From NCBI GenBank assembly GCA_031361045.1, contig JANMCH010000054.1, forward strand, positions 190 to 64,189: a DNA stretch of 64,000 bases, given 5' to 3'. The DNA comes from Betaproteobacteria bacterium (GTDB lineage: Bacteria > Pseudomonadota > Gammaproteobacteria > Burkholderiales > Casimicrobiaceae). The notes beneath the pieces are model-generated. The model did not search any database. It was not told where the DNA came from and worked only from the letters and a program-made list of their open reading frames with translations. Position 1 is the first letter of the stretch, and each line of letters starts with the position of its first letter. The translations under genes were made by a program, and so were the position numbers. Positions 4,332-40,270 of this stretch are shown in pieces.

Positions 4332-5015
4332 ATGTCGGTCGCGGAAGGTCGCGATGTTATACTTTTCCACCGCCTTTTCGCCAAGAAAAACTCCCTGCCC
4401 GTGCTCAAGCTGATCGCCTCGCCTACCAGTCCCTTTGTCCGGAAAGTGCGCATCGCGCTGGCGGAAAAGAAAATCGAATACCAGATGGTTGAAGCGTCGC
4501 CATGGGACGCAGGCAATCCGGTGCATGCCTACAGTCCGCTCGGCAAGGTACCGGTGCTGGTGCTGGACGACGGCACGCAGCTCTTCGACTCGCGCGTGAT
4601 CGTCGAATATCTGGACACGGTCAGCCCGGTGTCGCGCCTCATTCCCGAGCCCAATCGCCAGCGCATCGAAGTCAAGCGCTGGGAGGCGCTGGCCGACGGT
4701 GTCTGCGATGCGGCGCTGGCCATCGTGCTGGAGTCGCGGCGTCCGGCGAAACAGCAAAACAACGAGTGGACACAGCGCCAGCAGCAGAAGATAGCGGCGG
4801 GTGTTGCCGAACTGTCGCGGGAACTGGGCGACAATCCGTGGTGCGACGGCGAAACATATTCGCTGGCCGACCTGGCTACCGGGTGCGCGCTGGGCTATCT
4901 CGACTTGCGCTACGCCGCGCTCGACTGGCGGCGCGAGTATCCCAATCTCGCGCGGCTTGCGGAAAAGCTGGCGAAGCGGCCCTCATTCCAGGAAACGGTG
5001 CCGCCCGCCGCGTAG
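4332..5015 (+). CDS. Glutathione S-transferase family protein (YibF-like)
   Basis: It has a thioredoxin-like GST N-domain (LKLIASPTSPFVRKVRIALAEKKIEYQ..., GKVPVLVLDDG) and a GST C-domain. The true start may be the in-frame GTG at 4401 rather than the ATG at 4332. Confidence 0.8.
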   Translation: MSVAEGRDVILFHRLFAKKNSLPVLKLIASPTSPFVRKVRIALAEKKIEYQMVEASPWDAGNPVHAYSPLGKVPVLVLDDGTQLFDSRVIVEYLDTVSPVSRLIPEPNRQRIEVKRWEALADGVCDAALAIVLESRRPAKQQNNEWTQRQQQKIAAGVAELSRELGDNPWCDGETYSLADLATGCALGYLDLRYAALDWRREYPNLARLAEKLAKRPSFQETVPPAA

Positions 5016-5021
5016 TTCGCA

Positions 5022-5062
5022 GTCAACCTCAGTTGACCCCTCAGTTGACTTGCTTCAACTGA
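5022..5062. terminator. Two adjacent short hairpins between the convergent GST and acs genes (candidate bidirectional terminator)
   Basis: Hairpin 1 is GTCAAC(5022-5027)-CTCA-GTTGAC(5032-5037). Hairpin 2 is TCAGTTGA(5041-5048)-CTTGCT-TCAACTGA(5055-5062) and overlaps the acs stop codon. Stems are short and there is no clear U-tract. Confidence 0.3.
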
Positions 5063-7008
5063 TCGAGGATCGCCGGGTTCTCCAGCGTGGACGTGTCCTG
5101 CGTGATCTTCTCGTCCTTGGCGATCGAGCGCAGCAGCCGCCGCATGATCTTGCCCGAACGCGTCTTGGGCAGGTTCTCGCCGAAGCGGATGTCCTTGGGC
5201 TTGGCGATCGCGCCGATTTCCTTGGCCACCCAGTCGCGGAGTATCTTCGCAATCTTGTCGGCTTCAGGGCCTTCCGGCCGCGACTGCTTCAGCACGACGA
5301 ACGCGCACACTGCCTCGCCGGTCAGATCGTCGGGGCGGCCGACCACCGCGGCTTCGGCGACCAGTGGATTGGCGACCAGCGCCGATTCGATTTCCATTGT
5401 GCCCAGCCGATGTCCGGAAACGTTCAGCACGTCGTCAATGCGACCCATGATGCGGATGTAGCCTTCGAGATCGCGGCTGGCGCCGTCGCCGGCCAGGTAG
5501 TACTTGCCTTGGAAATCCTCGGGGTAGTAGCTGGTCTTGTAGCGATTCGGGTCGCCCCAGATGGTGCGGATCATGCCCGGCCAAGGCCGCTTGATGACGA
5601 GGATGCCGCCCTTGCCCAGTTCCACGCTGTGCCCGGTCTCGTCGACGATGTCGGCGATGATGCCGGGCAGCGCAAACGTGCACGAGCCGGGCTTCAGCGG
5701 CGTGGCGCCCGGCAGTGGCGTGATCATGTGGCCGCCGGTTTCCGTTTGCCACCACGTGTCGACGATCGGGCAGCGTGACCCGCCGACCGTCTGGTAGTAC
5801 CACATCCACGCTTCCGGATTGATCGGCTCGCCGACGCTGCCCAGGATTCGCAGCGACGACAGGTCGTAGTTCCTGGGCAGTTCGCCGCCCGCCTTGATCA
5901 GCGAACGGATCGCCGTCGGCGCCGTGTAGAACACGGTGACCTTGTGGTCCTGGATCATTTTCCAGAAGCGTCCGGCATCCGGATACGTGGGCACGCCTTC
6001 GAACATGATCTCGGTCGCGCCACAGGCGAGCGGGCCATACGCAATGTAGGTGTGGCCGGTGACCCAGCCCACATCCGCGGTGCACCAGTAGATGTCGCTC
6101 GGCTTGTAGTCGAACGTCCACTTCATCGTCAGGATGGCATGCAGCAGGTAACCGCCCGTCGAGTGCTGGACACCCTTCGGCTTGCCGGTGGAGCCCGACG
6201 TGTAGAGGATGAACAGCGGATGTTCGGCATTGACCCACGTCGGCTCGCAGGTGTCCGGCTGCCCCGCGACGGCGTCGTGCCACCACACGTCGCGCCCGGC
6301 CTGCATCTCGAGCGCAGTGCCCGTGCGCTGGTAGACGAACACGGACTTGATGCCCTCGCATCCGCCGAGCGCGAGCGCTTCGTCGACGACCTTCTTCAGT
6401 GGGATTTCGCGGCCGCCGCGGAATTGGCCGTCGGCCGCGATGATGGCCACAGCGCCCGCATCGATGATCCGCTCGTGGATGCTCTTCGCGGAAAAGCCAC
6501 CGAATACCACCGAATGCGTGGCACCGATGCGCGCGCAGGCCTGCATGGCGACCACCGCCTGGATCGACATCGGCATGTAGACCAGCACGCGGTCGCCCTT
6601 GTTGATGCCGCGCGCCTTCAGCGCATTCGCGAAGCGGCACACCTCGTGGTAGAGCGCCTTGTAAGTGATCTTTGTTACCGTGCCGTCGTCCGCCTCGAAG
6701 ATGATCGCGATCTTGTCGGGCTGCGTCTGCAAATGACGGTCGAGGCAGTTGTAGGAGGCGTTCAGTTCGCCGTCCTGGAACCACTTGAAAAACGGCGCAT
6801 TCGACTCGTCGAGTGTTTTCGTGAAGGGCTTGTGCCACAGCAGGCTCTCGCGCGCATGCCGCGCCCAGAAACCCTCGAAGTCGCGTTCGGCCTCCGCGCA
6901 CATCGCCTTGTATGCCGCCATGCCGGAAATGTTGGCCTGCTTGACGAAGGCATCCGACGGCGGAAAAACGCGGTTCTCCTGCAGGACCGACTCGATACCG
7001 GACGACAT
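5041..7008 (-). CDS. acs: Acetyl-CoA synthetase (AMP-forming)
   Basis: I placed the start at the ATG at 7008, preceded by GGAGGAGA. The translation [18 protein letters not shown]...[18 protein letters not shown]...[11 protein letters not shown] is a classic Acs. The longer ORF to 7344 is an upstream read-through. Confidence 0.95.
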
Positions 7009-14516: not shown

Positions 14517-16424
14517 CTACTTTACCGGACGCGGAAAGCCCATGCGGTCGACGATCGCCTGGTAGCGCGCGTTGCCGACGAGCTCGGGGCTCAATCCGGG
14601 CGTGATGACCGCATAGACCATGTTCGTCGTGCGGTCCGCGAATGCCTTTTCGTACCACACCAGCGCCTCGTCCAACTCGCCAAGGGCGCCGTGGACCTGC
14701 GCGAAAGTCACCGGGTCGACGTATTGCTTCGCTTCCAGCGCATGCAGTTGTTCGAGCTTGTGGCGTGCGCGCACGACGTCCCCGCAGGTCGCGTAGGCGA
14801 CGCCCAGCCACGACCACGACAGCGGCGCTGCCCCATCCGCGAGTCGGCGCTCGGCGATTTCGGCCTGGACGGTGGCTTCATCGCATTTCTTCTGCAGGGC
14901 CAGCGTGCGCGCGAGCTTGATGTAGCCCCATGTCCAGTTGGGATCGATGTCGATCGCGCGGCGGAATCCCGCGGCCGCTTCCTCGTAATCACCCTGGACC
15001 ATCGCGATGATCGCGAGGTTGTGCACGGGACCCACCGACAGCGGGTCCAGTCGAATCGCGATGCGGGTCCTGACGAGCGCCTCGTCGAAGCGGCCCAGCG
15101 CCATCAGGAAACCCCCGTATTCCTCATTGACCGCCTGGCTGTCCGGGTTCAATGCGATCGCGCGCCGGAATGCTGCGTCGGCGCCCGCCCAGTCCCATTC
15201 AAAGTAGAACCGGACAAGGCCGAGTGCGGTGTGAGCCTCCGCGAGGTCCGGATCGAGTTCCAGGGCCCGGGTCACCGCGGCCCGTGCCTTGTCCACGAAC
15301 GCACTGCGATCGACCGCGCGCAGATAGGCCTGCGTGGTGTAGGCCTCGGCCAGTCCGGCATGGGCCATCGCGTAATCGGGCGCGCGGTCCACCGCCTGCT
15401 GGAAACAGTCGACGCTCTTGTCCATTTCCTGCTGGTTGCCGCAGAGAAAATTGCGCCCCCTGAGGTAGAGGCGAAAGGCCTCCGGGTCTGAGGTGTCTTT
15501 ACGGGCGAGTTTGGCCTTCTCGCCACCGCTCAATTTGCGGCGCAGCGTTCGCGCAATGGTGGCCGCGATCTCGCCTTCGACCTGCATCAGGTCGTCCGCC
15601 GAACGCGCATACCTGTCGCCCCACAATTGCGTTCCGTCGCGCAGGCTGACGAGTTCCGCGGTAATGGCGATGCTCGTCCCGCGCTGTGCGAGGCTGCCGA
15701 GAATCAAAGCGTCCACGCCAAGGCGGCGCCCGATTTCCGCTGGCTCCGTTGCCTTGCCCTTGAACGCGAAGGCGGAATTTCGCGAGATGACACGAAGTCC
15801 CTTGAGGTTCGAGAGCTTGTTGATGAGGCACTCCGAGATGCCGTCGCAGAGGTAGTCGATCGTGGGGTCGCCCGTCGTGTTCTCGAACGGCAAGACGGCC
15901 ACCAGGTCGATCGCGTTGGCATCGCGCCGCGGCACTGCCGGCGCCAACGCGCCCGGACGTGGCGAGACGGCGGCGTTCACGACGCGGTCGCCTTGTGCAA
16001 GCAGGCGCGCCACGCGCTCGACGAAATTGGCAGGAACTTCCCCGGCCCGCAGGTAGGTCCACTGCACGTCGCGGAATTTGTCCGGCACCAGCGCATCGGT
16101 GTCGCGGGTGTCGTCGATGGCGACCGGCAGCAGGAACGGCTTCTCCGCAGCCATCAGATGCGAGCGGTCGACCGCCAGCTTCCATTCGAGGCGGAAATAA
16201 CCCTCGGCGCGGGCGCGCGTATTCGCCGAGATGATCGGCATGAACAGCGCGCAGGCCTTGATCTGCGTCCTGATCGAGGCATCCCATGCGTCGCCGCCGC
16301 GCAGTTCGCTGGTGTCGAGCCAGACCTCGACGCCGGCTGCGCGCAGTGTCTCGCCGATCCGGCGGGCGGCATCGGCGTCCTGCGACGCATAGCTCAGGAA
16401 GACTGCGTTGGTCGGTTCGTTCAT
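14517..16424 (-). CDS. TIR domain protein with a central TolB_N/FlgO-like module and C-terminal TPR repeats
   Basis: N-terminal residues 1-140 resemble a TIR_2 domain (AVFLSYASQDADAARRI...LRAAGVEVWLD...GDAWDASIRTQIKACALFMPIISANT...EGYFRLEWKLA). The middle VAVLPFENTTGDPTIDYLCDGISECLINKLSNLKGLRVISRNS...DALILGSL resembles the TolB_N-like module seen in cyclase/CadC-TPR proteins. The C-terminal roughly 300 aa are TPR-like. No signal peptide or TM segment was seen. Confidence 0.8.
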   Translation of the reverse strand: MNEPTNAVFLSYASQDADAARRIGETLRAAGVEVWLDTSELRGGDAWDASIRTQIKACALFMPIISANTRARAEGYFRLEWKLAVDRSHLMAAEKPFLLPVAIDDTRDTDALVPDKFRDVQWTYLRAGEVPANFVERVARLLAQGDRVVNAAVSPRPGALAPAVPRRDANAIDLVAVLPFENTTGDPTIDYLCDGISECLINKLSNLKGLRVISRNSAFAFKGKATEPAEIGRRLGVDALILGSLAQRGTSIAITAELVSLRDGTQLWGDRYARSADDLMQVEGEIAATIARTLRRKLSGGEKAKLARKDTSDPEAFRLYLRGRNFLCGNQQEMDKSVDCFQQAVDRAPDYAMAHAGLAEAYTTQAYLRAVDRSAFVDKARAAVTRALELDPDLAEAHTALGLVRFYFEWDWAGADAAFRRAIALNPDSQAVNEEYGGFLMALGRFDEALVRTRIAIRLDPLSVGPVHNLAIIAMVQGDYEEAAAGFRRAIDIDPNWTWGYIKLARTLALQKKCDEATVQAEIAERRLADGAAPLSWSWLGVAYATCGDVVRARHKLEQLHALEAKQYVDPVTFAQVHGALGELDEALVWYEKAFADRTTNMVYAVITPGLSPELVGNARYQAIVDRMGFPRPVK

Positions 16425-29195: not shown

Positions 29196-30386
29196 TCATG
29201 CGTCGCGCCGTCGCTTGCGCGGAAACCACTCGTTGCCGCCATAGCCCAGGACGCCCATGCCGATGCGCACGATGCCGTAGGCGACCCAGGTCAGTGCCCG
29301 TTCCACCAGGCTGCGCCCAGCCCAGCGCTCCGCCGCCATGGGCCGCGCGCCGTCGGCGATCATCTGGACCAGCTCCATGCGCAACTGGTCGGCAAAGTAA
29401 TGATCGCGCACGAACACGTTGGCCTCACGCGCCATGAGCAGCGAATAGGGATCGATGTTGGATGAACCGACCGTCGCCCAATGGTCATCGATCACCGCCA
29501 CCTTCGCATGGAGGAACGACCGGTGATATTCCTGGATCGCGACCCCGGCATCGAGCAGCTGCCCGTACAACGCGCGCGATGCGTAATGCAGCAACCGGTA
29601 CTCGACGCGTGCCTGCAGCAGCAACGTGACCTGGACGCCGCGCTGCGCCGCTGCGGTCAGCGCGCGCCGAAAATGGATGCCGGGAAAGAAGTACGCCGTG
29701 GCGATCAGGATTTCCTTCTTCGCCGTCAGGATCGCCGCCATGTAGTCGTGCTCGATGTCCTGGCGGTGGCCCAGGTTGTCGCGGATCGCGAATTTGGCGG
29801 TTTGGGTGCCGGCATCCAGAGTCGCGATGGGCACCGGAAAGAGCGGCACGTCGCTCATGTCCAACTGTGTGAGCTCGACCAGCGCCCACAGCCGCTGCAT
29901 GGTCATCACGATGGGGGCGAGCATCGGGCCCTCGACCCTCACGGCGAAGTCAACACGCGGCGGCTTGTGCCGCGGCGTATTCATGTCGTCGATCAGGTTG
30001 ATGCCGCCGACAAACGCCACGCGCCCGTCAACGTGGCAGATCTTGCGGTGCAGGCGCCGCAGCCGGTGCGAGCGGAATTGCCACGGCGCGACTTCGGGAC
30101 GGTATTTCATCAGGTGCACGCCACCCGACGTCAGGAAGGCCGCCATGGATGACGTGAGGAACTGGCGCGCGCCCCAGCCGTCCACCAGTACCCGAACCAT
30201 CACGCCGCGTTGGGCGGCGCGCACGAAGGCCGCGGCAATCGCGCGTCCGGACCCATCGTCGGCAAAGATATAGGTTTCGAGCCATACCTCCTGCTGCGCC
30301 GCATCGATCGCCGCAATCAGTGCCGGGAAGTATTCGGCGCCATTGCGCAGCAACTGGATCGCGTTGCCGGACTTGAAGTGCTCCAC
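29196..30386 (-). CDS. clsB: Cardiolipin synthase ClsB (PLD superfamily)
   Basis: It has two HKD motifs (HRKICHVDGRVAFVGGINL and HAKVAVIDDHWATVGSSNID), no N-terminal TM segment and is 396 aa. It lies downstream of an EEP-family gene, as in the E. coli ybhP-clsB arrangement. Confidence 0.88.
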   Translation of the reverse strand: MEHFKSGNAIQLLRNGAEYFPALIAAIDAAQQEVWLETYIFADDGSGRAIAAAFVRAAQRGVMVRVLVDGWGARQFLTSSMAAFLTSGGVHLMKYRPEVAPWQFRSHRLRRLHRKICHVDGRVAFVGGINLIDDMNTPRHKPPRVDFAVRVEGPMLAPIVMTMQRLWALVELTQLDMSDVPLFPVPIATLDAGTQTAKFAIRDNLGHRQDIEHDYMAAILTAKKEILIATAYFFPGIHFRRALTAAAQRGVQVTLLLQARVEYRLLHYASRALYGQLLDAGVAIQEYHRSFLHAKVAVIDDHWATVGSSNIDPYSLLMAREANVFVRDHYFADQLRMELVQMIADGARPMAAERWAGRSLVERALTWVAYGIVRIGMGVLGYGGNEWFPRKRRRDA

Positions 30387-30408: not shown

Positions 30409-31167
30409 CTAGCGGCGCCTGCGCGGAACCGTGAACGTGGCGGCCAGCGCCGCATGATCGGAGAGGCGCCCGGAAGGAAAGGCGTAGTGGACGCGTGCGT
30501 CGTTGACGTCGAGCTTGCGGGCGTAGATGCGGTCCAGGCGGAACATCGGCAGCACCGACGGGAACGTGCGCGCCGGGCGGCCCTTCACTTCCTCGAACAC
30601 TTCGTAGACGCCCAGTTCATCGGTGAGGATGCGGTCACCCTTGCGCCGCCAGTCGTTGAAATCGCCGGCGATGATCAGCGGGGCGTCCTGGGGGACGGTG
30701 GCGCGGATGCGTTCAGCCAGCGCGCGAATCTGCCACTGGCGGCCGCGCTCGAAAAGACCCAGGTGCACGTTGATGCAATGCAGGTTGGGCGCGCCTTCGG
30801 CCAGCTTGATTTCGCAATGGAGCAGGCCCCGGTTCTCGAACACGTGCGCCGAGATGTCCTCGTTTTCCTGCGCGACGATCGGAAAACGAGACAGCACCGC
30901 ATTGCCGTGGTGCCCGTGGCGATAGACCGCGTTGCGGCCATAGGCCACTTCCCGCCACACGGTATCCGCAATGAATTCGTGCTGTGGCTTGCCCGGCCAG
31001 TCGTGGTAGCGGCCCGCGTTGCGATGGTGAACGCCCTGCACTTCCTGCAGGAACAGGACGTCGGCGGACAGTCCATGGAGCTTCTCCTTGAGCTCATGGA
31101 TGACCATGCGCCTCGTCAGGTGGGAGAAGCCCTTGTGGATATTGAAGGTCGCGACGGTGAATTTCAT
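30409..31167 (-). CDS. Endonuclease/exonuclease/phosphatase (EEP) family protein, YbhP-like
   Basis: MKFTVATFNIHKGF...DVLFLQEVQG...IIAGDFNDW...SDHAAL are EEP catalytic motifs; 252 aa. Confidence 0.85.
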   Translation of the reverse strand: MKFTVATFNIHKGFSHLTRRMVIHELKEKLHGLSADVLFLQEVQGVHHRNAGRYHDWPGKPQHEFIADTVWREVAYGRNAVYRHGHHGNAVLSRFPIVAQENEDISAHVFENRGLLHCEIKLAEGAPNLHCINVHLGLFERGRQWQIRALAERIRATVPQDAPLIIAGDFNDWRRKGDRILTDELGVYEVFEEVKGRPARTFPSVLPMFRLDRIYARKLDVNDARVHYAFPSGRLSDHAALAATFTVPRRRR

Positions 31168-31403
31168 CCGCGCAGGCCGGGGCGTCGTTGCATTCGGGGG
31201 ATCGTGCTCACTTCCGCAATGTTAGCGGTAAATTGCGCCGGGCACCGGCATTCCTCGTGTCCACGGCCGCCGGCTTGCCTTTGCCACCGGAAGGCGCGTA
31301 AGTTTGCGGCTGGCCGGTCGACCAATAGGTCAGGCAGACCATGCGGTTGCATTCCGCCCATCGACCGGTCGCCTACAACCCGTTTCCACAGGAGTCTTGC
31401 ACC

Positions 31404-31670
31404 ATGAACAAGCAAGCCACGATTCAAGCCGCCGTCGCGGGCCTCATCGCCATCGGCTTTGCCGCGTCGGTCGCCGCCCAGCCCGTCGCGCCGAAAGAAG
31501 GTACCGAAAAGTGCTATGGCGTCGCCAAGGCGGGACAAAACGACTGCGGCACCGCGAAGCACGCCTGCGCCGCGCTGGGCGCGAAAGTCGACGGCGACCC
31601 CGGCGAATGGAAATACGTTGCCAAGGGCACCTGCGACAAGATGGGCGGCAAGACCGCGGCCCCGAAGTAA
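31404..31670 (+). CDS. bufA: DUF2282-family secreted 4-Cys peptide: bufferin-type RiPP precursor
   Basis: The ATG at 31404 is preceded by CAGGAG; 88 aa. It has a Sec-type signal peptide ([26 protein letters not shown]). The core is [25 protein letters not shown]...[14 protein letters not shown] with four Cys in the DUF2282 pattern. A DUF692 gene follows immediately. Confidence 0.85.
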
Positions 31671-31693
31671 TCTACCTGCCACATCAAGATAGC

Positions 31694-31723
31694 GCGGCCA
31701 GGCCACCCATCGTGGCCGGCTGC
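31694..31723 (+). other. Stem-loop between the precursor gene and the modifying-enzyme gene (possible attenuator or RNA-stabilising hairpin)
   Basis: GCGGCC-A-GGCCAC-CCATC-GTGGCC-GGCTGC has a perfect inner 6-bp stem and a 5/6 outer stem. There is no U-tract. It lies in the 62-nt gap between the DUF2282 stop and the DUF692 start. Confidence 0.35.
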
Positions 31724-31732
31724 GCGAAACCC

Positions 31733-32566
31733 ATGAATTCCCAGTTGCCCGTCGCCGCCGGGATCGGGCTGCGCTCGCCTCACGTCAGCCATGTGCTGGC
31801 CACGCGTCCGTCCGTCGCGTGGTTCGAAGTCCACAGCGAGAATTATTTCGCGGATGGCGGACCCGCACTGGTGGCGCTCGAGCGCGTGCGCGCCGACTAC
31901 CCGCTGTCGCTGCACGGCGTGGGCATGTCGCTGGGGTCCACCGACCCGCTGGATGTAGCGCACGTTGCGAAGTTGCGGCGTCTCGCCGATCGCATAGCAC
32001 CCGCCTGCATCTCCGAACATCTGTGCTGGAGCAGCGTCGGCGGGCGCCATTTCAACGACCTGCTGCCGCTGCCTTATACCCGCGAGGCGCTCGACCATAT
32101 TTGCGCGCGGGTCGGCCGGGTGCAGGAGATGCTCGGTCGCGCAATCGCGGTCGAGAACGTGTCCAGCTATTTCGCGTTCCCGGAGTCCACGCTGGAAGAA
32201 GCCGCTTTCGTCGCGGCGGTCGCGCAGCGCACAGGCTGCAAGTTGCTGGTCGACGTCAACAATATCTTCGTCAACGCCCACAATCACGGCGTCGACGCTG
32301 AAGGCTACCTCGCCGCAATTCCGCCCGCTGCAGTCGCCGAGGTCCATCTCGCGGGTTTCTCCAGGAGCGGCTCGTGTCTCATCGATACCCATGGCGCGCC
32401 GGTCGCGGCGGAAGTGTGGACGCTGTACGAACGCGCGTTGGCGCGCTTCGGGCCGGTGCCCACGCTGATCGAGTGGGACACGGACATTCCGGAATTCGCG
32501 GTGCTGCAGCGCGAAGCGGCCACCGCGCAATCGTGCCTGGAAGGCTGCCATGCTGTCGCTGCGTGA
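31733..32566 (+). CDS. bufB: DUF692/UPF0276 family protein: MNIO (multinuclear non-heme iron oxidase, MbnB-like) RiPP-modifying enzyme
   Basis: The ATG at 31733 gives 277 aa. GIGLRSPHVSHVL...WFEVHSENYF...LSLHGVGMSLGS...ISEHLCWSS...VENVSSY...LLVDVNNIFVNAHNHG...IEWD is the TIM-barrel DUF692 pattern. The part of the ORF upstream of 31733 overlaps bufA in another frame and is not coding. Confidence 0.88.
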   Translation: MNSQLPVAAGIGLRSPHVSHVLATRPSVAWFEVHSENYFADGGPALVALERVRADYPLSLHGVGMSLGSTDPLDVAHVAKLRRLADRIAPACISEHLCWSSVGGRHFNDLLPLPYTREALDHICARVGRVQEMLGRAIAVENVSSYFAFPESTLEEAAFVAAVAQRTGCKLLVDVNNIFVNAHNHGVDAEGYLAAIPPAAVAEVHLAGFSRSGSCLIDTHGAPVAAEVWTLYERALARFGPVPTLIEWDTDIPEFAVLQREAATAQSCLEGCHAVAA

Positions 32567-33305
32567 ATCGCAGACCCGATTCGCGGCCACCCTGCTCGGC
32601 AGCGCCGACGCAATGGACGCGCCCGATGAGCGACTGGCGGTGTACGTCAGCACCGTCCGCGCGAACTACCGCCATGCGCTGGCCGCCACCTACCCCGTCG
32701 TGCGGCAATTGGTCGGTGTGCCCTTCTTCGAGGCCGCCGTCGATACCTACGTGATGGCGGTGCCGTCGACGGGCGGCGATCTCAATGTCTACGGCGACCG
32801 CTTTGGCGAATTCCTCGCCGGCTATTCCCACGCGAGGGACCTGGCCTACCTTCCCGATGTGGCCCGCGTCGAGTGGGCCGTCGACGAAGCGAATCGCGCC
32901 GCAGACGCCTGCGGCACGCCGGAGTCCCTGCTCGCGGCGCTGGCCGCGGTCCCCGCCGCGAACGTTCCAGCGCAGCGATTTGTTCTCGACCCGTCGTGTC
33001 GTTTGGTCGCCACCGAGCATCCCGTGTTCCGCATCTGGCAGGTGCACCAGCCTGGATTCGATGGTGATGCCACCGTGCAATTCGGTACGGGAACCGATCG
33101 GCTGCTCGTCCGCCGCGAGAACGGTGTCGTCGTCATCGAGCGCGTCGTCCACGGCGACTTCGCTCTGCTGCGCGCGCTGGACGATGGCCACGACCTGGCC
33201 CATGCGCTGGATGCCGCAGTGGCGGCTGACCCGGCCTTCGACCTGGGTGCCGCGTTGCGCACGCACATCGCCAATCGCACGCTGGTGGGGCTGCGCAACG
33301 AATGA
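32550..33305 (+). CDS. bufC: DUF2063 domain protein (partner/substrate-recognition subunit of DUF692 enzymes)
   Basis: It overlaps the DUF692 gene by 17 nt. LAVYVSTVRANYRHALAATYPVVRQLVGVPFFEAAVDTYV...FGEFLAGY...LAYLPDVARVEWAVDEA matches the DUF2063 N-terminal pattern. Confidence 0.85.
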   Translation: MLSLRESQTRFAATLLGSADAMDAPDERLAVYVSTVRANYRHALAATYPVVRQLVGVPFFEAAVDTYVMAVPSTGGDLNVYGDRFGEFLAGYSHARDLAYLPDVARVEWAVDEANRAADACGTPESLLAALAAVPAANVPAQRFVLDPSCRLVATEHPVFRIWQVHQPGFDGDATVQFGTGTDRLLVRRENGVVVIERVVHGDFALLRALDDGHDLAHALDAAVAADPAFDLGAALRTHIANRTLVGLRNE

Positions 33306-33745
33306 AAGCGAACGCATCCGCGCGCATCCACGGCAACCTGGTGCACTGGATCGACCGGCTGCAGCCGTACTTTGCCCTCGCGCTGCGCGTGTACGTCGCG
33401 CGCGTGTTCTTCTTCTCCGGTCTCACCAAGCTCCACGACTGGAACATCACGCTGGCGCTGTTCCACAATGAGTACCATGTTCCGCTGCTGCCTCCTGCCG
33501 TTGCAGCGGTGTTGGGAACCGGCGCGGAGCTGGCGCTGCCCGTCCTGTTGTTCGCCGGGTTCGGCACGCGCTTCGCTGCCGCGGCGTTGTTCGCATTCAA
33601 CATCGTCGCCGCGATTTCCTATCCCGACCTGTCGGCAGCGGGACTCAAGGATCACATCCTCTGGGGCGTGCTGCTGATGGTGTTGTTCTTCTATGGTCCG
33701 GGGACACTTTCGCTCGATCACTGGTTGTCGCGTCGACGGGGCTGA
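33302..33745 (+). CDS. DoxX family membrane protein (fourth gene of the bufferin-type operon)
   Basis: Its start overlaps the preceding stop as ATGA. It is 147 aa with about 4 TM segments. ALRVYVARVFFFSGLTKL... and GAELALPVLLFAGFGTRFAA are typical DoxX motifs. Confidence 0.82.
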   Translation: MKANASARIHGNLVHWIDRLQPYFALALRVYVARVFFFSGLTKLHDWNITLALFHNEYHVPLLPPAVAAVLGTGAELALPVLLFAGFGTRFAAAALFAFNIVAAISYPDLSAAGLKDHILWGVLLMVLFFYGPGTLSLDHWLSRRRG

Positions 33746-33836
33746 AAGACGGCGCTCCGGCGGACGATACAATTCCCTCCGCGCGCTGACCCGATTGCCG
33801 GGCGCGGCGCCGCGGCCAAGGATACCCGTGCCCGAA

Positions 33837-35327
33837 ATGCAATCACCAAGCCCGACTCCCGCTTCCGACAGCGGGGTCATGGTCAAGGCGTACAACGACG
33901 TCGCGTACACCAGTCCGCCTGACGCCGCGCGTCATCCCGATCGGCTGGCCACGATAGCGACGCTGCTGGGAATGGAGGTGGCGCCCGTCGCCACCAGCCG
34001 CATCCTCGAATTGGCCTGCGGCGACGGGATCAATCTCGTGCCCATTGCCTCGTCGCTGCCCGACGCGACATTCGTCGGCTTCGATTTCGCCGCCAAGCCC
34101 ATTGCCCGCGCGCAGCGCATGGCCGACGACCTTGGGCTCACCAACGTGCGGCTGCTGCAGCTCGACCTGCGTGACGTTCCGGCTAACCTGGGCCAGTTCG
34201 ACTACATCATCGCGCACGGCCTTTATTCATGGGTTCCCGTGGATGTGCGCGTGCACGTGATGCCGTTGATCGCGCGCCACCTGGCACCGAAAGGCGTGGC
34301 CATCGTCAGCTACAACACGCTGCCCGGGTGCCACATGCGCCGCGCTGTATGGGAAGTTCTCAAATATCACACGCGCGACGCCAGGGACATGCCGGCAAAG
34401 GTTGCCGCAGCGCGTTCCATGATCGCGCTCATGTCCGTGCCTGTGGTTGGCGACAACGCCAGCCAGTTGGCCATGCGCGACGAGTTCCGCAATGTCGGCG
34501 CGGGTCCCGACGCGTCTCTGGCGCACGACGACATGAGCGAACCCAATAACCCGGTCTATTTCCACCAGTTCATGGCCGACGCGTCGAGCGCCGGACTCAC
34601 GTTTCTCGCGGAAGCCCGGTTGACGTCGATGATGGGCGCCGGCCTCGCGCCCGAGGTCCGGCAGGCGCTTGGGCCTCTCGACCGACTTTCGCGCGAACAG
34701 TATCTCGACTTCCTGCACTTTCGACGGTACCGCGAATCGCTGTTGTGCCACGCCGACGCGTTGTCGCGGTTTGTCGTGCAGCCTGCGCGCGCTGCGGCGC
34801 TGCATGTGAATGCTTCGCTCAATCTGCGGCGAACGGCCGCGAGCGCGACGCCGTCGCCGGAGGCCAAACCGGAAACCCAGGCGCTGAAGGAAATGCTGCT
34901 CGAGCGATGGCCCAACTCGGTACCGGTGAGTGAGCTTGCACAATGGCGCGAGCGCACTTTTCCTGCAGCCGCAGATGGCGAGTCTCGCCCGTCGATCGAA
35001 GTGGCGCTCACCGGGCACTATGGCACCGGACTCGTGGACCTGCGCACAGCGCCGGTCGCCGCGGTGGCGGTTGCCGGCGAGCGACCGAAGGCGTTTCCTG
35101 CGGCGCGGTGGATCAATCAGGAGCAGGAAGTCATTCCCAATCTCTATCACGAAGCGCTGCGGCATCAGGATCCCCTCGGCCAGCAATTGCTCGCGCTGCT
35201 CGATGGCACGAGAACGCGCGACGACCTGATCGCCGCCATCGGCGGACCGCTAGCCGGACCTGGCGGTCGCGCGCGACTGGACGAGATTCTGGCGCTATTG
35301 GCGAAGAAGGCCTTGTTGGTGGCCTGA
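33837..35327 (+). CDS. Class I SAM-dependent methyltransferase with a C-terminal 'methyltransferase regulatory' domain
   Basis: It has the SAM motif ILELACGDGINLVP and ...IIAHGLYSWVP. A long C-terminal domain resembles the predicted methyltransferase regulatory domain family. The start is ATG 33837 or 33879. It is on the same strand, 91 nt after the DoxX gene. Confidence 0.75.
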   Translation: MQSPSPTPASDSGVMVKAYNDVAYTSPPDAARHPDRLATIATLLGMEVAPVATSRILELACGDGINLVPIASSLPDATFVGFDFAAKPIARAQRMADDLGLTNVRLLQLDLRDVPANLGQFDYIIAHGLYSWVPVDVRVHVMPLIARHLAPKGVAIVSYNTLPGCHMRRAVWEVLKYHTRDARDMPAKVAAARSMIALMSVPVVGDNASQLAMRDEFRNVGAGPDASLAHDDMSEPNNPVYFHQFMADASSAGLTFLAEARLTSMMGAGLAPEVRQALGPLDRLSREQYLDFLHFRRYRESLLCHADALSRFVVQPARAAALHVNASLNLRRTAASATPSPEAKPETQALKEMLLERWPNSVPVSELAQWRERTFPAAADGESRPSIEVALTGHYGTGLVDLRTAPVAAVAVAGERPKAFPAARWINQEQEVIPNLYHEALRHQDPLGQQLLALLDGTRTRDDLIAAIGGPLAGPGGRARLDEILALLAKKALLVA

Positions 35328-35400
35328 CTCGTTAGTGGCCTGGCTGCGGGCGCGGTGCGCGCGGCGCAAACCTTGCGCGATACCGGGCTAGAATGCGCAA

Positions 35401-37338
35401 ATGAGCATCGTCGGCAAGACTCTCGCGGGTGCCGCCATCGTGCTGGCGGTTCTGGTCGCGGGCATCGTCGTCGCGATTTCGATGATCGACGTCGATACGC
35501 TGGTGGGACCGGTCAAGGACCGCATCCGTGCAGTGACCGGCCGCGAGTTGACGGTGGGCGGCGGTTCCAGCCTCGCCCTTTCGCTGCATCCCAGGCTCGT
35601 GCTCAAGGACGTGGCGCTTTCCAATGCGCCGTGGGGCAGCGCGCCGAAGTTGCTGACCGCGCAGCGATTGCAAGTCGAATTCGCGTTGCTGCCCTTGTTG
35701 TCGCGTCGCTTCGATCTCATCCAGGTGGAACTGGTGGGCCCCGTCATTTCGCTGGAGGCGGATGACAAGGGACGAAAGAACTGGGCGCCGGACCACGCGG
35801 CACCAGCGGCGCCGGCGCAACCGGCTGCGACCGCAGACGCGACGGCGGCAACGACGTACTTCAGCGTCGGCAATATCCTGATCACCGACGGCACGCTCAC
35901 GTTCCGCGACGGAACCGGCGCGCCAACGCGCGTCGCCATCAACCGCTTTTCGTTGCGCGCCCGCGAACCCACGTCGCCAATGGCCGCCGAGTTCCGCGGC
36001 GAGGTAGCCGGCGTTCCCGTAACGGTCGACGCGACGCTTGGGTCCGTCCAGGATCTGCTGCAACGGCGCGGCACGTTTCCGGTACAGGTCAAGGGCGACA
36101 TCGCGGGCCAGAAAACGGCGATCACGGCCAAGGTCCGCGTCGACGCCCAGAACGTTGCCTTCGATGACCTCGACCTCAAGATCGGCGCCAACGCGTTCGC
36201 CGGCAAGTTTTCCATCACCGCCGGAGAGCCGCGGTCGAAGCTGACGTTTGACCTGACCGGTCCGGCGCTCGTGCTCAAGGAGTTGCCGGTCGCCGCCATT
36301 GCGCGCGCACCTGCAATTGCGGCCGCACCCGCGCACGCGTCGCCGTGGCTGTTTCCGGATACGCCGGTGGACTTCGCAGCCCTGCGCATCGTCGACGCCG
36401 ACGGCACGCTCGCCATCGGCCGCCTGCAGCTCGCCGATGGCCGGCAATTGAACAACGTGCGCGCCTCCATCGCGCTCGCTGCCGGCAGGCTCGACGTGAA
36501 GAACTTCGAGATTGCGATCTTCGGCGGCAAGCTCGCCGGCAATGTCCACGTGGATGCGCGAACGGCCGGCCACGAAGCACTGGCCCTACACGCGAGCGGC
36601 ACGGGCTTCGAGCTGGCCGCGCTGCTTGCGGCGACCGGCAAGCCGCGCGAGGTCCGCGGCGGCAAGACCGCCATCAATATCGATCTCGACATGCTCGGCA
36701 CGTCGCCGCATGCGTGGGCGAGCACCGCATCCGGCAATGTCCGTGTCGTGGTGGGACCCGCCACGCTGGTGAACACCAAGCTCGACTTGTCCTCCGCGAT
36801 CGACAAGGTGATCCAGGCCGTCAATCCCTTCCGGGAGCGCGATCCTTCAACCGACCTGGTCTGCGCAGTGGTGAGGTTGCCGCTCGCGAACGGCATCGCG
36901 AAAGTGGACCGTTCGATTGCGATGGAGACGCAGAAGGTCGGCGTGTCGGCGACCGGCTCCCTCGATTTCCGAAACGAAACGCTCGAATTCACCTTTCATC
37001 CCAAGGTGCGCAAGGGCCTCTCCATCCCCGGTCTCAATTTCGCGGACCTGGTCGGCTTGCGCGGGCCGTTCGCGTCGCCGCAGGTGACGGTGAATGCGGT
37101 CGGCTCCGCGAAAGCCATTGCCAGCATCGGCGCGGCCGTGGGCACCGGGGGACTGTCGACGATCGGACAGGCGCTGCTCGGCCAGGTGGAGTCCGGCGGT
37201 ACCGGGCTTTGCGCCATCGCGCTGGGTGCGAAAGACAGCGCGCCGGACGCGTCGGCATCAACTCAAGGCAAGGTCGCAGCGCCGGAAAGCGCGGAACGCA
37301 AGATCGAAGGCGCGATTGGCAAGTTGTTCGGCCGCTGA
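35401..37338 (+). CDS. AsmA family outer-membrane biogenesis protein
   Basis: There is an N-terminal TM anchor (AAIVLAVLVAGIVVAI), then the repetitive beta-rich AsmA pattern (LVGPVKDRIRAVTGRELTVGG...LSLHPRLVLKDVALSN...) and an AsmA_2-like C-terminus; 645 aa. Confidence 0.82.
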   Translation: MSIVGKTLAGAAIVLAVLVAGIVVAISMIDVDTLVGPVKDRIRAVTGRELTVGGGSSLALSLHPRLVLKDVALSNAPWGSAPKLLTAQRLQVEFALLPLLSRRFDLIQVELVGPVISLEADDKGRKNWAPDHAAPAAPAQPAATADATAATTYFSVGNILITDGTLTFRDGTGAPTRVAINRFSLRAREPTSPMAAEFRGEVAGVPVTVDATLGSVQDLLQRRGTFPVQVKGDIAGQKTAITAKVRVDAQNVAFDDLDLKIGANAFAGKFSITAGEPRSKLTFDLTGPALVLKELPVAAIARAPAIAAAPAHASPWLFPDTPVDFAALRIVDADGTLAIGRLQLADGRQLNNVRASIALAAGRLDVKNFEIAIFGGKLAGNVHVDARTAGHEALALHASGTGFELAALLAATGKPREVRGGKTAINIDLDMLGTSPHAWASTASGNVRVVVGPATLVNTKLDLSSAIDKVIQAVNPFRERDPSTDLVCAVVRLPLANGIAKVDRSIAMETQKVGVSATGSLDFRNETLEFTFHPKVRKGLSIPGLNFADLVGLRGPFASPQVTVNAVGSAKAIASIGAAVGTGGLSTIGQALLGQVESGGTGLCAIALGAKDSAPDASASTQGKVAAPESAERKIEGAIGKLFGR

Positions 37339-39538: not shown

Positions 39539-39552
39539 GTTGGCTCCGGTTT

Positions 39553-40260
39553 TTATTTCGACTCAGTTTGGTTCAGGCCGGCAGCGGCAGCAGCATCCGC
39601 AATGACGATGGCGCGATCACGGTTCACGCGGCCCGCCGGGATTTCGCGATCGCCCTTCAGAAGTCGTCCGAGCATCGTCGCTTTTTCCGCGCCGGTCACG
39701 ACCCACAGCACGCGGCGCGCGCGGTCGAGCACCGGAAACGTCAGCGTCATGCGCGGATGGCCCAGATAGGGCGCGGTTACCGCAACAGCCGCATTCGTGA
39801 TTTTCAGCACCGGATCGTCCGGTACCAGTGAAGCCGTGTGGCCGTCAGGACCGAGACCGAGGTGGACGAGATCCAGTACCGGCGGGGACTTGGCAATCGA
39901 TGCCAGCTCCTGCGCGTAACGTGCTGAAGCTGCCGCGAGGTCCGGCATGTTGACGGGCATGGCGTGCACGTGGTCCGGTGCCAGTGTCGCGTGGGCCAGC
40001 AGGCTCTCACTGATATGGGTGAGATTGCGGTCCGGGTCGCCTTGCGGCGCGACGCGCTCGTCGACCTGGAACAGGTGCGTCTCATTCCACGGCATCGGCA
40101 GCGCCGCAAGCAAGCGGAGCATCTGCCACGGCGTGCGGCCACCGCTGACGGCAAACGTGAATTTTCCGCACGTGGCGACGGCGTCCCGCGCCGCGTCGGC
40201 GATCAATGTGGCCGCGCGTTGCGCGACGGCATCGGCATCGGGGAGCACGACGACTTTCAA
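39553..40260 (-). CDS. pgl: 6-phosphogluconolactonase
   Basis: 235 aa. FTFAVSGGRTPWQMLRLLA...WNETHLFQVDERV is the SGGxTP and DER motif of the Pgl/NagB family. It lies downstream of zwf. Confidence 0.9.
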   Translation of the reverse strand: MKVVVLPDADAVAQRAATLIADAARDAVATCGKFTFAVSGGRTPWQMLRLLAALPMPWNETHLFQVDERVAPQGDPDRNLTHISESLLAHATLAPDHVHAMPVNMPDLAAASARYAQELASIAKSPPVLDLVHLGLGPDGHTASLVPDDPVLKITNAAVAVTAPYLGHPRMTLTFPVLDRARRVLWVVTGAEKATMLGRLLKGDREIPAGRVNRDRAIVIADAAAAAGLNQTESK

Positions 40261-40270
40261 GGGATTGCCG

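Follow-up and report, generated by a model that had tools for sequence, protein, structure and literature searches.

A likely Buf1-type bufferin operon, bufABCD, with a predicted extracytoplasmic-function promoter in an uncultured betaproteobacterium

Bufferins are peptides described as containing thiooxazoles, being exported by Sec, binding copper 1:1 and protecting against copper (PMC11626156). The gene order precursor-MNIO-DUF2063-DoxX, in which MNIO denotes the multinuclear non-haem iron oxidase family (DUF692), constitutes the core bufferin cluster (PMC11626156, PMC12452194). In the Buf1 peptide of Caulobacter, Cys23 and Cys31 are converted to 5-thiooxazoles with the loss of 4 Da per residue, Cys12 and Cys52 form a disulfide, and cleavage of the signal peptide was established by mass spectrometry (PMC11626156). 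The 5-thiooxazole assignment was later made for products of Haemophilus, Neisseria and Fontimonas as well, under the class name captophorins (PMC13097082). Here, a locus of the same gene order, bufABCD, is described from contig JANMCH010000054.1 of an uncultured betaproteobacterium. The stretch of DNA that was analysed (the window, 64,000 nt) represents nearly the whole of the 64,256-bp contig, and the locus is likely a complete Buf1-type operon.

Bufferin surveys mention SigF/NrsF, a sigma factor and its anti-sigma factor, as the only type of regulator, and in Caulobacter the site GTAACC-N16-CGAA, upstream of buf1, was mapped by 5′ RACE (PMC3511200). The sigma-E operon of Neisseria meningitidis (NMB2140-2145) encodes DoxX, three hypothetical proteins, sigma-E and MseR, a small zinc-finger anti-sigma factor of the ZAS type (PMC2893595; PMC3240639). 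Its promoter was deduced as a -35 element GTMAGBWTT, a spacer of 12-13 nt and a -10 element CGTCTAAH, with an A start 6 nt downstream (PMC2893595). In Haemophilus influenzae, a DoxX/COG3220/DUF2063 cluster is induced by hypochlorous acid (HOCl) in an RpoE2-dependent manner, and HrsE, a ZAS protein of 67 aa, holds RpoE2 (PMC7907618).

The bufABCD operon and its products

31390-31394, + strand: ribosome-binding site AGGAG of bufA, invariant in 15 related loci, 9 nt before the ATG at 31404
31404-31670, + strand: bufA, 88 aa, Buf1-type (DUF2282) bufferin precursor
31404-31478, + strand: predicted Sec signal peptide (aa 1-25), from sequence features, cleavage motif VAA↓QP
31479-31667, + strand: predicted 63-aa BufA core, with Cys at core positions 12, 23, 30 and 52
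31733-32566, + strand: bufB, 277 aa, multinuclear non-haem iron oxidase (MNIO/DUF692)
32550-33305, + strand: bufC, 251 aa, partner protein with an N-terminal DUF2063 and a C-terminal alpha/beta domain
33302-33745, + strand: bufD, 147 aa, DoxX-family membrane protein

A sequence-only reading of the window had proposed a bufferin/gig-type locus of four tightly packed, co-directional genes, and had called for profile searches of the four proteins. The open reading frames (ORFs) on the + strand agree with it to the base, including overlaps of 17 nt between bufB and bufC and of ATGA between bufC and bufD, and the four proteins match DUF2282, MNIO, DUF2063 and DoxX, respectively. The proposed identity held in every sequence-level test (DUF2282, the Sec-type N-terminus, the BufB equivalog model and ligands, the fold of the partner, and gene order). 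The cluster is identified as a bufferin cluster because domain scores, iron ligands, cysteine spacing, BufC fold and gene order all agree. It is a routine, intact example of a family that was described in 2024-2026 and has thousands of members, in the commonest architecture.

BufA matches the DUF2282 model PF10048 with 69.5 bits (cut-off 22.4) over aa 35-82, and 2,635 homologues were found, of which all 120 listed carry PF10048. The NCBIfam BufA2 model matches weakly (29 bits, cut-off 60), and a Buf2 precursor identity was rejected on this score. The N-terminus is signal-peptide-like, as had been claimed for the 88-aa precursor, with Lys3 in the n-region, a hydrophobic segment at aa 5-29 and the motif VAA↓QP, in which A25 and P27 are invariant among 35 homologues; inspection of this N-terminal sequence revealed neither a lipobox nor a twin arginine. 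These features are consistent with a Sec signal, the cleavage of which after Ala25 would leave a 63-aa core. The cysteine contexts read earlier (EKCYG, NDCG, HACA and GTCD) are present at Cys37, Cys48, Cys55 and Cys77, and the four cysteines, together with one 10-residue block, are invariant in the 35 homologues (75-92% identity). Compared with the published Buf1 positions, the core cysteines lie at 12/23/30/52, against 12/23/31/52 in Caulobacter. A low-confidence model of BufA (pLDDT 61) contains two strands and a short helix, in agreement with the published description. A longer bufA ORF starting at 31341 was considered and rejected, since the upstream extension is unconserved, while AGGAG and the ATG at 31404 are invariant in the 15 related loci. 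The GC content at third codon positions (GC3) is 0.80-0.82 (computed for bufA as the 31341 ORF, bufC and bufD), which is typical for genes of this 65% GC window, and the proteins are 60-90% conserved among related loci, where the intergenic DNA is unconserved.

BufB matches PF05114 (MbnB_TglH_ChrH, MNIO) with 367.6 bits and the NCBIfam equivalog NF050167, “MNIO family bufferin maturase”, with 389.1 bits (cut-off 310), whereas it falls far below the cut-offs of the HvfB, ApyH, MbnB and ChrH models (HvfB, NF003818, 250.4 bits against 360; MbnB, TIGR04159, 61.8 bits against 325). In the HMMER alignment to MbnB (7tcr), H96, E141, D174 and N177 of BufB correspond to MbnB H90, E133, D163 and N166, and H205, D218, H220 and E247 correspond to H192, D208, H210 and E239. 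BufB H61, equivalent to the MbnB ligand H54, aligns with the first His of Vibrio MbnB, TglH and 3bww. The aligned MbnB residues are the published ligands of Fe1, Fe2 and Fe3 (PMC9060507). As all nine published iron ligands are kept, the metal site of BufB is complete, and these residues and the equivalog score bear out the earlier assignment of the DUF692 protein as an iron oxidase.

The third gene had been read as a DUF2063 gene, and BufC matches PF09836 (DUF2063) with 70.2 bits over aa 7-89. The NCBIfam HvfC model gives 37.5 bits (cut-off 142), as expected for a different subfamily. A search of the Protein Data Bank (PDB) with the BufC sequence returned no match. The AlphaFold2 model (41 homologues, pLDDT 87) was used for a fold search, in which the only significant PDB matches were TglI (8hi7_A, 8hci_A) and NGO1945 (3dee), with a probability of 1.00 each and query-normalised TM scores of 0.52-0.58. 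TglI is the partner of the MNIO TglH, and NGO1945 was the first DUF2063 structure; the modelled BufC thus resembles the MNIO partners TglI and NGO1945. BufD, overlapping bufC by ATGA, is the DoxX protein that had been expected in fourth place (PF07681, 56.5 bits, cut-off 23.6) and contains hydrophobic segments; it stays below the cut-off of the HvfX family NF050144 (60 bits against 80). In most related loci, bufD follows bufC.

It is likely, judging from sequence, that the locus is a complete Buf1-type bufferin (captophorin) operon in the chromosome of this bacterium, acting by the following mechanism and controlled in trans by a sigma factor of the extracytoplasmic function (ECF) class. BufA would be translated as an 88-aa precursor. 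In the cytoplasm, BufB, as the iron oxidase, and BufC, as the substrate-recognising partner, would oxidise Cys48 and Cys55 (core 23 and 30) to 5-thiooxazoles with the loss of 4 Da each, by homology with Caulobacter buf1. The peptide would be exported by Sec and cut by signal peptidase after Ala25, and a Cys37-Cys77 disulfide would form in the periplasm. The resulting 63-aa, 6.35-kDa product (computed monoisotopic mass 6352.00 Da for the predicted mature form and 6362.08 Da for the unmodified core) would bind one copper ion through thiooxazole S and N, buffering excess periplasmic copper, while BufD would have an accessory membrane role. The most likely start of transcription is about 72 nt upstream of bufA, and transcription would depend on an ECF sigma factor of the Neisseria sigma-E/Haemophilus RpoE2 family, held by a small ZAS anti-sigma factor, the pair being encoded elsewhere; a stem-loop after bufA would probably raise the ratio of precursor to enzymes. 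The chemistry, copper binding and induction of this locus are inferred by homology.

Promoter, sigma factor and competing explanations

31298-31326, + strand: predicted ECF-type promoter, with conserved blocks, Neisseria sigma-E-like
31298-31306, + strand: -35 element GTAAGTTTG, followed by a 12-nt spacer
31319-31326, + strand: -10 element CGACCAAT, 6 nt before A31332

The 236-bp region between bufA and the divergent EEP-family gene has a mean column identity of 45% across 15 loci, in which the blocks GTAAG(T/G) and CGAC(C)A are invariant. GTAAGTTTG agrees with the Neisseria -35 consensus at 8 of 9 positions and, after the 12-nt spacer, CGACCAAT agrees with the -10 consensus at 6 of 8, a close but imperfect match; an A lies 6 nt downstream, at 31332. 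With A31332 as the predicted start site, the leader would be about 72 nt long. From this conserved site, its spacing and the position of the A, we infer that transcription of bufABCD begins at about 31332 and depends on an ECF sigma factor of the sigma-E/RpoE2 type encoded off the contig.

Of 77 loci, 40 have a strict form of the motif, GTAA[GC]-N15-17-CGA[CAT], upstream of bufA, compared with 1.2 in shuffled sequences (about 35-fold enrichment), and in nearly all loci it lies 54-89 nt before the bufA ATG. G occupies position 5 in 39 of the 40 distinct sites, and C the last position, likewise in 39. The motif occurs 54 times in 884 kb from related loci, and 38 of these sites are just upstream of a bufA gene. 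The site at bufA is the sole intergenic occurrence in the window; a looser search added only intragenic matches (12408, 25625 and 59531). A scan of 31000-35500 found no sigma-70-like promoter, and all terminator-like matches were inside genes. The window site, GTAAGT-N15-CGAC, differs from the SigF (ECF16) site GTAACC-N16-CGAA, and there is no SigF/NrsF pair next to the operon, nor any sigma factor or NrsF homologue in the window; SigF/NrsF (ECF16) control was rejected on both grounds.

The sequence-only reading had remarked that no ECF sigma/anti-sigma pair or two-component regulator adjoins the operon, and neither the neighbouring genes nor a tblastn search with 19 ECF sigma factors from related loci revealed one (best E = 0.05 in the 64-kb window). 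Its further statement that regulation is open holds as far as no regulator is present on the contig, but the operon does have a conserved promoter of the ECF type, like those of Neisseria sigma-E/MseR. Among the 80 closest BufB loci, which served as the related set, about 20 have a TIGR02943-family ECF sigma gene together with a zf-HC2 anti-sigma gene of about 55 aa adjoining bufA. These anti-sigma factors match the NCBIfam “antisigmaE” model, and no NrsF homologue is encoded in any of the 80. In one locus with the synteny of the window (L016), the sigma gene (4695-5288) and the anti-sigma gene (5329-5508) are inserted between the EEP-family gene and bufA. On metagenome contigs centred on the sigma family, the strict motif occurs 51 times in 333 kb, against about 5 expected with equiprobable bases. 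Sites precede DUF2282 precursors (L104, L105), the sigma gene itself (L112, L129, L142), an EGKCG-repeat precursor (L127), a KCG/CGAC-rich 94-aa secreted peptide (L109) and a stand-alone DoxX gene (L157). As a side observation, the TIGR02943-type family may control several classes of MNIO peptide (L109, L127, L157).

A second observation concerns the sigma genes themselves. In about two dozen loci (within L083-L162, for example L097 4461-4485 and L105 4455-4479), GTAAGG-N16-CGAC(C)AA occurs inside the ECF sigma gene, and the same motif is found inside the sigma gene of L016 (5182-5206). It lies about 100 nt before the sigma stop codon, over Cys-Lys-Glu codons (TGT AAG GAA), just upstream of the anti-sigma gene, and could be an internal promoter feeding back on the anti-sigma gene or a by-product of coding constraint.

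Because the bufA site is invariant in lineages without a linked sigma gene, the sigma factor is presumed to act in trans. A wider reading, on which we are evenly divided, holds that the DUF2282 operons of this clade are governed by a sigma-E/MseR-type ECF sigma factor and a ZAS protein of about 55 aa, and not by SigF/NrsF, from promoters of the form GTAAGK-N15/16-CGACCAA, with control in trans in this genome. It would further make this sigma family a redox- or thiol-sensing master switch for at least three precursor classes of MNIO peptides (DUF2282, EGKCG-type and KCG-rich), with the hairpin between bufA and bufB setting the ratio of precursor to enzymes.

Several points weigh against the proposed mechanism and its control in trans. 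The cognate sigma factor is not encoded on the contig, nearly all of which lies in the window. The -10 element here is CGAC, not the CGTC of Neisseria. The sigma genes of related loci are mostly without an upstream motif, and the connection between sigma factor and promoter is suggested by co-occurrence and by precedent in Neisseria and Haemophilus. The AlphaFold2 model of BufA, built from 35 close homologues, is too poor (pLDDT 61) for the proximity of Cys37 and Cys77 to be judged. Finally, in Cupriavidus metallidurans, the gig operon adds only slightly to copper resistance. Classical autoregulation of the sigma factor was rejected for the 19 genome loci, where the upstream motif search was negative, although the three metagenome loci noted above do show it.

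Among the alternatives, the one that fares best retains the same biosynthesis and assigns the product a main role in defence against oxidants, hypochlorite or thiol-reactive stress in general, rather than in copper or gold buffering. The promoter lends itself to this explanation, matching as it does the type read by redox-sensing, ZAS-controlled ECF sigma factors such as Neisseria sigma-E/MseR. RpoE2 of H. influenzae is induced by HOCl, H2O2 and paraquat, and the Haemophilus MNIO/DoxX cluster is induced by HOCl alongside msrAB, dependent on RpoE2 (PMC7907618). An association with oxidative or sulfur stress has been described for DoxX homologues, and no copper genes are found among the ORFs scanned in the 64 kb. 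However, copper binding and protection have been shown directly for Buf1 and Buf2, the Haemophilus- and Neisseria-type products, too, are reported to act in copper detoxification (PMC13097082), and thiophilic metals could themselves trigger a ZAS anti-sigma factor, such that the two roles need not exclude each other. An oxidant role in place of copper buffering is considered rather unlikely.

The conserved blocks might instead be the binding site of an activator or repressor, with transcription from a weak sigma-70 promoter. The lack of a sigma gene on the contig, the scarcity of the motif upstream of related sigma genes and the correlative link between motif and sigma family would all be compatible with such a site. 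The geometry of the blocks, though, is that of -35 and -10 elements, about 21 nt apart across an unconserved spacer and without dyad symmetry; homologous operons have a deduced ECF consensus, which the sequence and spacing fit; at 54-89 nt before the ATG, the blocks are placed much like the mapped Caulobacter start at -61; and the sigma-70-like promoter that would be needed was not found in 31000-35500. This explanation is improbable, and an ECF promoter is preferred.

With regard to chemistry, a methanobactin-like pair of oxazolone and thioamide groups would have the same mass as the 5-thiooxazoles expected from BufB, and oxazolin was first assigned an oxazolone/thioamide structure (PMC11252979). 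That structure was later revised to 5-thiooxazole (PMC13097082), nuclear magnetic resonance data on Buf1 support 5-thiooxazole (PMC11626156), and BufB scores far beneath the MbnB cut-off, which makes methanobactin-like groups very improbable here. A silent relic cluster with an unmodified, membrane-anchored DUF2282 protein, suggested by source annotations of homologues as “uncharacterized membrane protein”, is scarcely credible given four intact ORFs of normal GC3 (for the three genes computed), proteins conserved at 60-90% amid unconserved intergenic DNA, conserved promoter, ribosome-binding site, cysteines and iron ligands, and the signal-peptide cleavage seen for Buf1 by mass spectrometry (PMC11626156).

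The bufA-bufB hairpin and the surrounding genes

31692-31725, + strand: GC-rich stem-loop in the bufA-bufB gap, 14 bp, no U-tract
29196-30386, - strand: clsB-type cardiolipin synthase (NF008427, 349.6 bits)
30409-31167, - strand: EEP-family protein gene, divergent from bufA and paired with clsB
33837-35327, + strand: PKMT-like methyltransferase, 496 aa, 91 nt after bufD

The 62-nt gap between bufA and bufB folds with -29 kcal/mol (z = -3.9), and none of 200 shuffled sequences was as stable. Most of the closer relatives have a strong hairpin in the same place but of unrelated sequence, followed by a U-tract in a few; among eight near relatives, 4 of the 14 stem pairs show compensatory changes. 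In more distant loci, the bufA-bufB gap is about 30 nt long and has no hairpin. The stem-loop is probably a partial terminator or an mRNA stabiliser that favours precursor over enzyme transcripts. Intercistronic hairpins that favour the precursor are common in operons for peptide natural products. The words “terminator”, “hairpin” and “stem-loop” do not occur in the two bufferin surveys.

Gene content varies among the related loci. Two bufA-like genes are present in L009, L018, L020, L021, L024, L070 and L078; in L021, each copy (5661 and 8502) has its own promoter motif and the second precedes bufD. In L039, L045, L057, L058 and L073-L075, bufA and bufD lie downstream of bufBC, in departure from the bufABCD order.

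The nearest relatives of the locus are found in metagenome-assembled genomes (MAGs) labelled as uncultured betaproteobacteria, Casimicrobiaceae or Usitatibacter, with BufB at most 82% identical. The arrangement of an ABC transporter, clsB and the EEP-family gene on the opposite strand next to bufABCD is kept in MAGs with BufB 63-82% identical, and this conserved chromosomal position indicates vertical inheritance under selection. The EEP-family gene and clsB were considered as cluster members and rejected; they are on the opposite strand and resemble a clsB operon. This pair we take to be like the ybhP-clsB arrangement of Escherichia coli. Its juxtaposition with bufABCD is conserved in many MAGs, with no evident functional link.

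Downstream, the 496-aa methyltransferase contains a “methyltransferase regulatory” domain and a PKMT winged-helix domain, of the Rickettsia protein-lysine methyltransferase type. A methyltransferase of this kind and asmA follow bufD only in the closest loci, and the gene was rejected as a fifth member of the cluster, since it follows bufD only in L002-L007 and L024 and not in other syntenic loci. Folding of the 91-nt gap revealed no significant RNA structure. The methyltransferase is probably unrelated to the cluster, though it may be co-transcribed with bufD.

A Pfam scan of 41 ORFs outside the operon, which left out stretches such as 39539-40270, found ordinary chromosomal genes and, among these ORFs, no metal-resistance, sigma or anti-sigma genes. 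They include secDF, purB, acs, fumarase, dnaJ, grpE, hemH, hrcA, nadK, recN, tkt, zwf, gnd, pgi, tal and tctCA, and one GGDEF/EAL signalling protein. A 635-aa protein (14517-16424, - strand) that has a TIR_2 domain at its N-terminus and numerous TPR repeats adjoins dnaJ among the heat-shock genes of the dnaK region; TIR domains are often tied to NAD-consuming defence or signalling.

Comparison with known systems

The bufABCD locus alone adds little to what is known of bufferins, beyond a clean example, annotated in full, from a soil lineage of uncultured betaproteobacteria; the modest additions are the regulatory assignment and the conserved hairpin. For clusters without a nearby regulator, the assignment offers a candidate explanation of how they are switched on, namely by a sigma factor that is encoded elsewhere and reads a conserved ECF promoter. 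It also joins the copper-focused bufferin literature to the older literature on sigma-E and RpoE2 in the oxidative-stress responses of Neisseria and Haemophilus, a link which suggests that these peptides respond to thiol-reactive stress generally.

The founding bufferin 1 cluster, buf1ABCD of Caulobacter vibrioides (CCNA_03363-03366; PMC11626156), has the same four families in the same order. Its DUF2282 precursor likewise carries a Sec signal, with cysteines at 12/23/31/52 (12/23/30/52 here) in a core of 68 aa (63 aa here), and its mapped leader is 61 nt long, against about 72 nt predicted here. In Caulobacter, SigF/NrsF (ECF16) is encoded nearby and the site is GTAACC-N16-CGAA, whereas the site here is GTAAGT-N15-CGAC and neither the sigma factor nor NrsF is encoded on the contig.

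The gigPABT operon of C. metallidurans (gig for gold-induced genes) consists of four homologous genes, with best local tblastn identities of 41% (BufA, over 61 aa), 48% (BufB), 34% (BufC) and 42% (BufD). There, the ECF16 sigma factor RpoQ and the NrsF-type anti-sigma factor RsqA are encoded divergently (rpoQ-rsqA), in contrast to the present contig, which has neither. The ECF16 consensus was given as -35 AATTCG and -10 GGTTAC, and no ECF16 motif was reported at gig (PMC13492112). The AATTCG/GGTTAC pair is the reverse complement of a Caulobacter SigF-type site, and the divergent rpoQ/gigP region of strain CH34 contains two perfect GTAACC-N16-CGAA sites, one per side (L081 7204-7229, + strand, and 7169-7144, - strand; about 1315203-1315228 and 1315143-1315168 of NC_007974.2). 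The published rpoQ start (TSS_1315237) is 9 nt beyond the end of one site, and the gigP ATG is 117 nt downstream of the other. Because perfect sites are present and the published consensus is their reverse complement, the gig operon may have an overlooked RpoQ promoter.

The Neisseria NMB2140-2145 and Haemophilus hvf clusters (oxazolin, gonophorin, fontiphorin) share with the present locus MNIO, DUF2063 and DoxX proteins and a Sec-exported, Cys-rich precursor. They also share its type of promoter, with a -35 element GTAAGKWT, the same spacing and a -10 element beginning with CG, and small ZAS anti-sigma factors are encoded in loci related to the present one. Their precursors contain EGKCG repeats, whereas BufA is a four-Cys DUF2282 protein without such repeats, and in Neisseria the sigma and anti-sigma genes lie inside the operon, whereas none is on the contig here. 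An oxazolin/Hvf identity was rejected on the lack of EGKCG repeats in BufA and on the HvfB score (250.4 against 360 bits).

A methanobactin identity was rejected in turn (TIGR04159, 61.8 against 325 bits; no MbnA or MbnC). Methanobactin biosynthesis by MbnABC shares the MNIO fold, the full set of iron ligands and the conversion of cysteine to a copper-binding heterocycle, but its MbnA-type leader/core precursor, MbnC and its export and uptake genes have no counterparts at this locus. Methanobactin is a secreted copper scavenger, whereas the product of bufABCD would remain in the periplasm as a copper buffer.

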